From Escherichia phage vB_EcoM_G2469: a stretch of DNA of 64,000 bases. A program made the position numbers and the translations under genes. Every line of letters starts with the position of its first letter. Position 1 is the first letter of the stretch. The DNA lies in sequence record MK327934.1; one strand, written 5' to 3'. Positions 61,173-64,000 of this stretch are shown in pieces. The notes under the pieces were generated by a model. That model was not told the origin of the DNA, did no database searches, and worked only from the letters and a program-made list of their open reading frames with translations.

Positions 61173-61711
61173 TCTTTTATTTCCAGTAGTTTATTTGATT
61201 TAAGGTAATTAGCCTTTTCTAGGACTTCAGAAGCATATTTACTTCCAGCACTTGTCTTCCATCCCGCATTATATGAGGATATAGCTTTTCTTATATCCCC
61301 GTTATGTATATTTAACCAATAAGAAAATTCGATATAAGCCCATCTGGCCGAATTAGACCGCTTAGATAGCATTTTCTTAATTTGGGCATCAGTCATATTA
61401 TAACCAAGTTGGTTAATTCTTGCCCTCATTGTTGGTAGATAATTTTGGAACATTCCATACGCATGGTGACCTTTCTTATCTTTAAGATTAATACCGGCAG
61501 ATGATTCCTGCCATAGTATTGCGGCCATTATGTATCCAAGTCCTTTCTTATGCATATTTTCATGCGTTTTAAATTTTCCGTCCTTAGAAAACTGTTCCCC
61601 AAACTGATAAGCATAATTCAAGTTATCGAGTTGGACATTACTAAAAGTATGCTCGGAGCTATGTGCTGATAACGAAAGAGCAAATAGACCAGCGAGTAGT
61701 GCTTTTCTCAT
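61169..61711 (-). CDS. periplasmic lytic transglycosylase-like protein (SLT domain)
   Basis: 180 aa; signal peptide; SLT-like motif WQESSAG...YGMFQ. Confidence 0.55.
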   Translation of the reverse strand: MRKALLAGLFALSLSAHSSEHTFSNVQLDNLNYAYQFGEQFSKDGKFKTHENMHKKGLGYIMAAILWQESSAGINLKDKKGHHAYGMFQNYLPTMRARINQLGYNMTDAQIKKMLSKRSNSARWAYIEFSYWLNIHNGDIRKAISSYNAGWKTSAGSKYASEVLEKANYLKSNKLLEIKE

Positions 61712-61719
61712 GTTTACCT

Positions 61720-62178
61720 CTAGATTTTAATCACTGCTTTAGAAGCTTTTCCTGGTAGTCGTTTACTGTTAATAATAGCCATTCTGCATTGAAGAGTCTT
61801 CATTTTGAATGCCGGATTTTCGCGACAAACTGTAAGTCCTAACCAAAGATTTCCATCAGTTATTTCTAAACGGCCTGGGCGATATTCGACACCTTCGACA
61901 AAATCTTCATCAACATCTGGACGTGCCGGCATTGATAAAAATTCTGTAACTTCTTTAACATGATTTTTTACTTTATGAAATAATTCAAAAACGTAATTCT
62001 CATCTATTTCTCTCTGGATGGCACGATCTAAGAGATGTTGAGAATACTTGATATGAAAGCCTGGTAGTCCAAGAGACTTTGCAGCATCTTTTATACCGGC
62101 ATTTATTTTGCGGAACTCCGTTTCAAAGATTCGACGGAGTTTATTACGGCGGATAAAAACTTCCGAATTGATAGTCAT
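61720..62178 (-). CDS. regB: RegB endoribonuclease
   Basis: T4 RegB-like (MTINSEVFIRRNKLRR...); start at ATG 62176-62178 gives 152 aa. Confidence 0.85.
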   Translation of the reverse strand: MTINSEVFIRRNKLRRIFETEFRKINAGIKDAAKSLGLPGFHIKYSQHLLDRAIQREIDENYVFELFHKVKNHVKEVTEFLSMPARPDVDEDFVEGVEYRPGRLEITDGNLWLGLTVCRENPAFKMKTLQCRMAIINSKRLPGKASKAVIKI

Positions 62179-62206
62179 TTTGATTTCTCCTCTAGTTGAC
62201 AAGTCT

Positions 62207-62235
62207 ATAGTAACACAACTAGAGGAGAAGTAAAC
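62207..62235 (-). promoter_or_regulatory. early-type promoter GTTTAC-N17-TACTAT inside a 14-bp SD-containing inverted repeat
   Basis: arms ttctcctctagttg and caactagaggagaa on minus strand. Confidence 0.5.
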
Positions 62236-62239
62236 TACT

Positions 62240-62455
62240 TTATTGATAAAATGGAGTTAAAGCCCAAGATTCTTTAGATACTATATTGGCGAAATGCCTC
62301 ATCTCTTCAATTTGGCGACGACGCTGGTCAGCATAGTCTTCTTCGCCTTCTTCCTTACAATCTTCAAGGTCTTCTTCAAGATACTTTAAGTATTCACTAC
62401 AAATTTTGTTGACCTTTTCTTGGAAGTCCAATAACCCAGTAATAGTAGAAGCCAT
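62240..62455 (-). CDS. small acidic hypothetical protein
   Basis: 71-aa ORF, ATG start. Confidence 0.45.
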   Translation of the reverse strand: MASTITGLLDFQEKVNKICSEYLKYLEEDLEDCKEEGEEDYADQRRRQIEEMRHFANIVSKESWALTPFYQ

Positions 62456-62721
62456 TAGTATTTTTCCTCAGGTCGAAATACTGCACGACATGCCCACATA
62501 CTGGCTTCTTTTAGATGTTGCTTAGCGTACTTAAGAGCCTGCACTGCATCCATATCTTCTTTGGTTTGTTGCTCTGTTTCATTTTCTTTCAAGATATATG
62601 CTTCTTCAATCAGAGCATCAAACAACAATCCAAGACGGACTTCAGCATCTTTAATAGCGTTCACTTTACCAATTTTATCATCGGTATGCGGCTTGTAACC
62701 TTTAATATCTTCAATCGACAT
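62455..62721 (-). CDS. hypothetical protein
   Basis: track ORF starts at TTG and overlaps upstream gene; start set to ATG 62719-62721 with gagga SD. Confidence 0.4.
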   Translation of the reverse strand: MSIEDIKGYKPHTDDKIGKVNAIKDAEVRLGLLFDALIEEAYILKENETEQQTKEDMDAVQALKYAKQHLKEASMWACRAVFRPEEKY

Positions 62722-62935
62722 AAGGAATTTCCTCATCTGTGGCAAGGTCATATTCGACCAATTGGATAGGCTCATTAATACCATATCCACGTACAGTGAT
62801 ATCAGTTGTCGGATAGTTTCCAGTAATATCACCCGTTCTAAATGCTTCAATGAATGATTGCTCGCCTGAGCAACTAAACCAGGCGGCAAAACATTTTAAA
62901 ACATCTTCAGACCCTTCTATAATCAATTTAGCCAT
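62711..62935 (-). CDS. hypothetical protein
   Basis: 74-aa ORF, ATG start. Confidence 0.45.
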   Translation of the reverse strand: MAKLIIEGSEDVLKCFAAWFSCSGEQSFIEAFRTGDITGNYPTTDITVRGYGINEPIQLVEYDLATDEEIPYVD

Positions 62936-63297
62936 TATAGACTCTCAGTAAAGGTGCGAGCGATAACGTCACGCTGCTGTTCCGGAGTCAGAGAGTTAAA
63001 GCGAACTGCATAACCGGATACACGGATGGTCAGCTGCGGATATTTTTCCGGATGCTTAACTGCATCTTCCAGAGTTTCACGACGCAGAACGTTAACGTTC
63101 AGGTGTTGACCACCTTCAATTTTAACTTTAGGTTGATGTTCAATTTCAATTTCACGGGCATTCAAACCGTAGAAAATTTCCGGGTCTACAATAGCGTCTT
63201 CTTTAAAAGTCTTAGAGACAATAATCCGGGCTTGAGTACCATCTTCAAAATAAATAGTGCCTTTATGTGCACCTTCAAGAATTTGATATGCTTTCAT
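62935..63297 (-). CDS. autonomous glycyl radical cofactor, GrcA/YfiD-like
   Basis: 120 aa; C-terminal glycyl-radical domain with RVSGYAV; coding DNA noticeably GC-richer than flanks. Confidence 0.85.
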
Positions 63298-63303
63298 ATA
63301 ACC

Positions 63304-63612
63304 TCAGTTAGAAAATAAATTTATCCAAGTTTTTTCTTTAATCAAAAATGGGTCGGAATTAAACGCCATTAAACTTTGAGTGATTAATCCCTTAAATGGC
63401 CCATCAATAAATTCCATTTTGAAATGCGGAATACTAGTCATCAACCGTGCATTAGGAGCAGTACAAAGAACCTGCTGCCCTGCGAACGGTCCTTTAGTCA
63501 AACGGTATCGTTTAGGTTTAAAATGGTAAATCTCGTAATTTTCTACAAGAGCCATTTTATTGCATACTGGGCTGTTATAACAATATTCAAAAACTTCAAT
63601 AGTGGTCATCAT
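63304..63612 (-). CDS. hypothetical protein
   Basis: 102-aa ORF, ATG in ATGA overlap with upstream stop. Confidence 0.5.
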   Translation of the reverse strand: MMTTIEVFEYCYNSPVCNKMALVENYEIYHFKPKRYRLTKGPFAGQQVLCTAPNARLMTSIPHFKMEFIDGPFKGLITQSLMAFNSDPFLIKEKTWINLFSN

Positions 63613-64000
63613 TGCATTCCAATCACAAAAAATTGAGGACGAGCATTACCGCCGATGCAATATTTGCTTTTGCAACAGTGTTGGACTGTTTTAATATGTA
63701 CATTGTAAATCTTATCCATATCAGGAGCTTTAATAGGCTCGTCAATTATGTACAGAATACGAGAAAGCGTTAATCCACGGAATTTAGAACCTTCATTGCC
63801 AATAAAACTACGAACAGAATCAGTAAATAAACGGAATCGAATATCGTCGCTAGAATAACGAGAAAATTCTTTTTTAATGTTGCCGGCAGAAATTTTAGCA
63901 TAAGCTGAAGTATTAGAAAGAACAATAACTGTTCCACCATCATACAGCCAATTAACAGCAAAATTAGTTACTGCGGTCGATTTACCTGATTGTCTGCCGC
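63609..64000 (-). CDS. P-loop NTPase, C-terminal part (5-prime end beyond window)
   Basis: open frame to window edge; Walker A GRQSGKST, Walker-B-like YIIDE. Confidence 0.5.
   Translation of the reverse strand, partial: GRQSGKSTAVTNFAVNWLYDGGTVIVLSNTSAYAKISAGNIKKEFSRYSSDDIRFRLFTDSVRSFIGNEGSKFRGLTLSRILYIIDEPIKAPDMDKIYNVHIKTVQHCCKSKYCIGGNARPQFFVIGMQ

Follow-up and report, generated by a model that had tools for sequence, protein, structure and literature searches.

A host grcA segment within the resident vs.6 gene of the T4-like Escherichia phage vB_EcoM_G2469

The DNA analyzed here, referred to as the window, is a stretch of 64,000 nucleotides from Escherichia phage vB_EcoM_G2469 (MK327934.1). 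Positions 62935 to 63297 of the minus strand hold exactly one ATG-to-TAA open reading frame (ORF), of 120 residues plus TAA, and this gene is vs.6, which is the homologue of bacterial GrcA/YfiD in the T4 family. Gene, family and function were all known and annotated before this analysis. The kilobase around it was 98–99% identical to RB69-type T4-like phages (genus Mosigvirus), in which the counterpart is vs.6 and carries the RefSeq name "autonomous glycyl radical cofactor GrcA". The gene order of RB69 (vs.8-vs.7-vs.6-vs.5-vs.4-regB-vs.1-vs-tk) is conserved, with vs.6 placed in the early region tk-vs-regB, where its neighbors are vs.7 and vs.5. This position is supported by the annotation of RB69 as well as by the flanking genes, which are RegB and Acb2-like. 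The TAA of vs.6 overlaps the ATG of vs.5, which starts at 62935 (ATAATG). The features of the gene are as follows.

62935..63297, minus strand: vs.6 coding sequence, 120 residues plus TAA, assigned from the ORF, the 98–99% RB69-type identity and the matches to PF01228 and 6owr

63118..63297, minus strand: codons 1–60, the phage-type N-terminal half, with 18/60 residues identical to E. coli GrcA, GC 0.34 and GC3 0.22

62947..63117, minus strand: codons 61–117, the host-derived block, an Escherichia grcA allele encoding the structured glycyl-radical domain, delimited by identity, bootstraps and a breakpoint test

63013..63015, minus strand: GGT, the codon for Gly95 of RVSGYAV and predicted site of the glycyl radical, counterpart of GrcA G102 and PflB G734 (alignments; PMC12338860)

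62935..62946, minus strand: last three codons (GAG AGT CTA) and TAA, phage-type synonymous codons with the same G/T/A pattern in Slopekvirus and Jiaodavirus

63302..63305, minus strand: GAGG, a putative Shine-Dalgarno-like motif that overlaps the vs.7 stop and lies 4 nt upstream of the ATG of vs.6, read from ...TCTAACTGAGGTTATATG

The sequence-only reading of this DNA had proposed a 120-residue protein ending in a glycyl-radical domain (RVSGYAV) close to that of GrcA/YfiD, and both the ORF and the domain proved to be correct. The vs.6 product, in which the motif reads RVSG95YAV, matched the Pfam Gly_radical family (PF01228) at 2e-18 and 67.3 bits, against a cut-off of 22.2. Searches of the PDB with phmmer matched the YfiD/GrcA structure 6owr at 2e-42, with an alignment reaching back to residue 21, and PFL (1h16) at 3e-26, aligned to PFL residues 696–759. 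The top NCBIfam family was the GrcA equivalog TIGR04365, for which the score of 159.1 bits fell just under the cut-off of 170 because the N-terminal half has diverged. The NCBIfam GrcA2 and GrcA3 models (NF008341 and NF038360) matched at 1e-27 to 5e-31, with scores far below their cut-offs. The gene also has the build of a GrcA-type protein, as it encodes a small stand-alone protein with its own start, stop and Shine-Dalgarno-like motif and without a catalytic barrel, and in sequence alignments its C-terminal domain duplicates PFL residues ~693–759, as is characteristic of GrcA/YfiD.

Several observations concerned the surroundings of the gene. A promoter and terminator scan of positions 61500–64000 returned 8 promoter-like sites, compared to 7.5 in shuffled sequence, and so no excess. 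Two genes downstream of vs.6, the ORF at 62455–62889 (minus strand) matched the Pfam Acb2/Tad1 hairpin domain (PF24729) at 1.4e-17. This is a family of anti-CBASS/anti-Thoeris nucleotide sponges, so that a counter-defence gene lies within the early cluster that contains vs.6; the true coding sequence is probably shorter than the ORF, by comparison with RB69 vs.4. The codon table of the window was compiled from 60 long ORFs, 59 of which are on the minus strand.

The two halves of vs.6 differed sharply in their relationship to the bacterial gene. The first 60 residues of the phage protein had 18 identities to E. coli GrcA and are 7 residues shorter than the corresponding part of that protein; the sequence-only reading had rightly noted an N-terminal divergence, but had placed it in 50 residues rather than 60. 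In contrast, residues 61–120 were 100% identical to residues 68–127 of E. coli K-12 GrcA. The identity extended to the nucleotide level, with 174–175 of the 180 nt of the last 60 codons matching E. coli grcA (97–99% identity). There were six differences from E. coli K-12 and five from strain 1190, all of which were synonymous and three of which were in the last three codons. When only codons 61–117 were considered, the phage differed from strain 1190 at 2 of 171 nt, and the T4 block did not differ from it at all. Without a mismatch, vs.6 of the window matched an E. coli allele over 148 nt at most, and that of T4 over 178 nt. Upstream of codon 61 the identity dropped abruptly, and a maximum chi-square test located the breakpoint at about the end of codon 59 (permutation p<=0.0005). 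The edges of the block were sharp (codon 60|61 at one end, roughly 117|118 at the other), and both coincide with the ends of the stretch that can be aligned between the phage and host genes. Positions 62944–63117 were matched at 95–99% in all 5,426 complete E. coli genomes searched, whereas the rest of the 64-kb window had no megablast-level similarity to any of them.

A nucleotide match of this kind could conceivably have arisen without any transfer, if purifying selection and host-optimal codons had converged on the same sequence. GrcA is encoded by a highly expressed gene with biased codons, and across all phages and bacteria the block hardly varies at the protein level. However, 54 of the 60 codons were identical to those of E. 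coli grcA, compared to the 24.9 +/- 3.3 expected under the codon preferences of the phage (P=3.7e-19); the alignment to host grcA, which the sequence-only reading had put forward as a check, thus gave an identity well beyond that expected from protein conservation. Bacteria with the same protein and a similar codon bias differ from E. coli at 14–25 codons, and the phage blocks reproduce synonymous variants that are specific to E. coli or to K. pneumoniae. In addition, the block of Krischvirus, whose members are E. coli phages, has 55 of 60 residues in common with E. coli GrcA and yet only 75% nucleotide identity. Based on these comparisons we consider convergence to be extremely unlikely. The conserved part of vs.6 is host DNA of recent origin.

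The composition of the region agreed with the sequence-only reading, in which the conserved part exceeds the phage background in GC. The GC content was 0.45 for positions 62938–63165 and 0.49 for the last 60 codons, with peaks of 0.54 and 0.51 in 100-nt and 150-nt windows, respectively, compared to a mean of 0.37 for the whole 64-kb stretch. This excess corresponded to z = 2.8–3.6 and placed the block in the top 0.03–0.4% of windows of the same size, although the amino-acid composition of the block accounts for part of it. The GC3 of the block, 0.42, was in the top 5% only, relative to 0.29 +/- 0.06 in 60-codon windows of the phage. As evidence for transfer, composition alone was therefore real and suggestive but not decisive, and because of the modest GC3 result we rested the claim on nucleotide identity.

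The same reading had proposed that the gene was recently acquired from an enterobacterial host, which held for the block but not for the gene as a whole. If the whole of vs.6 had been captured recently, the N-terminal half must have diverged rapidly afterwards. The C-terminal half being 97–99% identical to E. coli grcA, and the N-terminal half still being detectably homologous to GrcA, would both fit such a capture. However, no single divergence time fits an N-terminal half with ~30% amino acid identity and a block with 0–2 synonymous changes, and there was no sign of a diversity-generating system that might have hypermutated the N-terminal half. Its phage-type sequence has been kept in Tequatrovirus, Mosigvirus, Jiaodavirus, Karamvirus, Slopekvirus, Pseudotevenvirus and Krischvirus, seven T4-like genera in which the gene order is also conserved, and the N-terminal half alone also occurs in T5-like phages; the MKAYQ start is common to the phage genera and to the T5-like phages. 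At the nucleotide level, the N-terminal half of the window's gene was 90% identical to T4 and 76% to Jiaodavirus, and Jiaodavirus joins this same family of N-terminal halves to a K. pneumoniae block. Recent capture of the entire gene is, in our judgement, highly improbable. Since the N-terminal half does align to GrcA (by phmmer, back to residue 21), we consider the whole gene to be an old homologue of grcA, which later received the block.

Comparison of the window with T4 supported a separate history for the two parts. In the N-terminal half 18 of 180 nt differed (7 amino acid changes and 10 synonymous codon changes). The block, by comparison, differed at only 2 of its 171 nt (Fisher p=0.0003), a scarcity indicating that, at this locus, it is younger than the split of the two lineages. 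In the last three codons of vs.6, the synonymous choices are of the phage type and are common to distant phage genera.

At codon 118 T4 has the host-type GAA, and the window (62944–62946) and RB69 have the phage-type GAG, while the last codon is TTG in T4 and CTA in the window. The patch seems to reach its end one codon further on in T4, which hints that Tequatrovirus and Mosigvirus may have undergone separate conversions.

An abrupt change in composition is also what an assembly chimera, or contamination of one sequence with host DNA, would produce, and that change is the only point in favor of such an artifact. The same mosaic is present in T4, in RB69 and in ~645 independent records of the phage collection that are at least 90% identical over the whole vs.6 coding sequence, and the junctions are in frame within an intact gene. 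We regard the likelihood of an artifact as negligible.

Together, these data led us to favor, as the best explanation overall and very probably the correct one, a gene-conversion patch in which host grcA overwrote codons 61 to about 117 of an older resident phage gene whose product, Vs.6, is a spare part for PFL. The near-exact copy with its sharp edges is a clean, if small, example of gene conversion from a host to a virulent phage. The exchange would have taken place by homologous recombination, or by heteroduplex repair, between host grcA and the existing phage copy.

The donor was sought by comparing the block with the best 80 bacterial grcA loci listed, which did not include K. pneumoniae; grcA of that species was taken from chromosome-derived records in the plasmid collection. 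Among those 80 loci the phage block was 97–98% identical to Escherichia alleles, and the other enterobacterial genera (Citrobacter at 92%, for instance) were only 86–92% identical to E. coli grcA over this 180-nt stretch, which identified the block as an Escherichia allele. In a neighbour-joining tree of 171 nt and 102 taxa, T4-type blocks grouped with Escherichia in 200/200 bootstraps and Jiaodavirus with K. pneumoniae in 193/200, and a phage-only clade was recovered in 0/200. Two other genes were considered as donors and rejected, namely pflB (77% nucleotide identity) and tdcE (75%), leaving grcA as the donor. The direction of transfer was from host to phage, because GC3 jumps across the junction within the phage gene (from 0.22 in the N-terminal half to 0.42 in the block) while E. 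coli grcA is uniform, and because the E. coli allele sits normally among the enterobacterial alleles.

Two features of the databases were noted in the course of these comparisons. The plasmid collection contains chromosome-sized or chromosome-derived records, such as CP125156.1 (5.37 Mb) and NZ_CP093490.1, that carry the core genes grcA and srmB. The grcA of K. aerogenes LR134122.1 (locus L175) is frameshifted as deposited, probably owing to an assembly error.

A second case was found in Jiaodavirus. The blocks compared were from Klebsiella phage Nispero, "Salmonella" phage PSE-D1 and the IMG/VR locus L120, and the Jiaodavirus block was 97% identical to K. pneumoniae grcA (5 differences in 171 nt) versus 87% to that of E. 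coli. The reverse was true of the T4/RB69 block, which was 99–100% identical to E. coli and 87% to K. pneumoniae. The Jiaodavirus gene showed a GC3 step at the same junction, from 0.25 in the N-terminal half to 0.63 in the block. Conversion has therefore occurred at least twice, from Escherichia into the T4/RB69 lineages and, independently, from K. pneumoniae into Jiaodavirus. Within the phage collection, 95 records were 95–99% identical to the K. pneumoniae block.

A further 45 phage records were 90–95% identical to the K. pneumoniae block, for instance MH333064.1 (Klebsiella phage Mineola) and MN101226.1 (KMI12, K. oxytoca). Their donors may have been other Klebsiella species, in which case these records would represent additional independent conversions.

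The extent of conversion across phages was limited. The blocks of Krischvirus, Karamvirus, Slopekvirus, Pseudotevenvirus and the T5-like phages were 71–85% identical to any bacterial allele, most phage genera of the IMG/VR survey reached 70–85% against any of the 80+ bacterial alleles sampled, and no record in the phage collection was at least 95% identical to the block of Salmonella enterica or of Enterobacter asburiae. We therefore rejected the idea of a general tracking of hosts, as no S. enterica or E. asburiae block was found in these phages and most genera are without a recent host tract. An E. coli or K. pneumoniae block is present in some phages whose host of isolation was Yersinia or Salmonella, and this mismatch indicated that the block reflects the history of the lineage rather than the host of isolation. 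Conversion at vs.6 is episodic, follows lineage history and is not universal.

A bolder interpretation is that vs.6 acts as a landing pad, its block being repeatedly re-synchronized to the grcA of the current host, from the degraded host chromosome, and selected for its fit to PflB and PflA and for efficient translation. We put this forward tentatively, as a possibility that we think is rather less probable than its converse. If it were true, the block would record the recent host history of a phage lineage.

The survey also returned more distant relatives of the gene. T5-like phages (Demerecviridae), such as Salmonella phage rutana (415–783, locus L011) and the phages of IMG/VR loci L136–L162, have a vs.6-type gene of ~122 residues with the MKAYQ start, whose blocks were 70–76% identical to any sampled bacterial grcA. 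The occurrence of the phage-type gene in both T4-like and T5-like phages suggests that, at least between these two groups, it spreads from one phage family to another, and it does not seem to be re-captured from hosts. Jumbo-phage loci (L118–L121) contain vs.6-type genes with other N-termini and with blocks 74–78% identical to any sampled bacterial grcA. Another group of IMG/VR loci (L112–L117 and L123) encodes homologues of 130–137 residues with the N-terminus MKAIQIIDDF. In most of this group the block was 81–83% identical to Haemophilus parainfluenzae grcA, compared to a median of 73–75% to other bacteria, while L116, L117 and L123 had their best matches, of 78–81%, in Pantoea or Gallibacterium. 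These genes may contain another host-related tract.

The function of the protein is best understood from its relatives. T4 Y06I and E. coli YfiD are two validated spare-part proteins, on which the PFL activase (PFL-AE) installs a radical and which restore cleaved PFL, according to the account of Wagner et al. 2001 given in PMC8683613. Residues 61–127 of YfiD fold like PFL residues 693–759, and the disordered residues 1–60 promote binding and activation (PMC8683613). Radical transfer proceeds from GrcA G102 to PflB C419 (PMC12338860). The window protein has 94% identity to T4 Vs.6 with all differences in the N-terminal half, and we therefore infer that it shares the mechanism of its orthologue, with the radical on Gly95 and host PflA as activase.

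By analogy, the proposed mechanism would begin in microaerobic cells, in which oxygen would attack the Gly734 radical of PflB and sever the C-terminal radical domain. Vs.6 would then bind the cleaved PflB and receive a radical on its Gly95 from host PflA, the phage itself apparently encoding no PFL activase; the window encodes both NrdD and NrdG, and NrdG was the sole activase found there. The C-terminal domain of Vs.6 would stand in for the lost PflB segment, such that acetyl-CoA and formate could be produced again. A phage-encoded copy would be useful since T4-type phages shut off host expression and host GrcA would no longer be made. A running PFL would supply the infected cell with ATP and acetyl-CoA, and its formate could feed phage NrdD as reductant. 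The class III RNRs characterized so far use formate as their reductant, and T4 NrdD has been suggested to contain a formate binding site (PMC4493059). The benefit to the phage would thus be physiological, with vs.6 and nrdD connected indirectly.

The sequence-only reading had suggested a direct connection, in which Vs.6 is a spare radical domain for phage NrdD (46645–48462), and this claim was not supported. NrdD is a glycyl-radical enzyme that is cleaved by oxygen at its radical glycine, it is encoded together with NrdG in the same window, and spare parts for other glycyl-radical enzymes have been the subject of speculation (PMC8683613). However, BLASTP gave no similarity between Vs.6 and NrdD, including the radical domain on which NrdG acts (best E=10). 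NrdD has RRTCGYLG as its radical motif, with a different tail after it, while the domain of Vs.6 is identical to that of GrcA and 80% identical to PflB residues 700–759. Activase specificity may also count against such a role. The T4 orthologue Y06I, moreover, works with the PFL activase on cleaved PFL, as recounted in PMC8683613. We consider repair of NrdD to be quite improbable, and the supply of formate to be the more plausible link between vs.6 and NrdD.

Vs.6 might instead be a decoy that titrates PflA or occupies PflB, so as to shut down or re-route host fermentation. YfiD's N-terminal half governs binding and activation, and a phage-specific N-terminal half could change binding. However, PMC8683613 describes the T4 orthologue as having restored the activity of PFL in vitro, and the catalytic block has been kept identical to that of the functional host protein, which would be needless in a decoy. 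A decoy is therefore improbable, and a spare part for PFL remains the function that we favor.

In the limited set of literature searched, there was no earlier description of the host-identical tract, of its sharp edges or of the K. pneumoniae block of Jiaodavirus, and a review of T4 relatives did not mention vs.6. What is described here is an evolutionary detail of a known system, one that is possibly unreported. The T4 family, the best studied among phages, is usually described as having almost no DNA similarity to its host, to which vs.6 is an exception by gene conversion. The block could serve as a natural assay for recombination between host and phage, as well as a marker of host history, and the gene suggests a concrete physiological link from PFL through formate to phage NrdD.

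Among known proteins the closest is T4 Vs.6 (Y06I), an orthologue at the same gene position with 93.7% nucleotide and 94.2% amino acid identity, an identical set of C-terminal 60 residues and the same E. coli-derived block. It differs by seven amino acid changes, all in the N-terminal half, and within the block the window carries two additional synonymous changes. E. coli GrcA/YfiD (6owr) resembles Vs.6 in size (both are ~14 kDa), in the correspondence of residues 61–120 to 68–127 (100% amino acid and 97% nucleotide identity) and in its two-part layout, where a variable N-terminal half is joined to a radical domain mimicking PFL 693–759. The settings of the genes differ, with vs.6 in a phage early-gene cluster and host grcA between ung and eamB. 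The C-terminal domain of PflB (and of TdcE) has the fold and motif in common with Vs.6, with 80% amino acid identity to PflB 700–759, the segment that Vs.6 is thought to replace; the nucleotide identity to pflB is, however, only 77%, and Vs.6 is small and autonomous and has no catalytic barrel. The NCBIfam GrcA2 and GrcA3 models (NF008341 and NF038360) have the radical domain in common with vs.6, but are of 78–80 residues and lack the N-terminal half.

A parallel from outside the T4 family is cyanophage psbA, a host-like auxiliary metabolic gene that has reportedly undergone intragenic recombination between host and phage and is said to be a mosaic with host-derived segments. There, a phage copy of a damage-prone host component with fast turnover keeps metabolism running after host shut-off. 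Vs.6 differs in that it pertains to fermentation rather than photosynthesis, and in that its patch stays within one domain and is near-identical to the allele of one host species.
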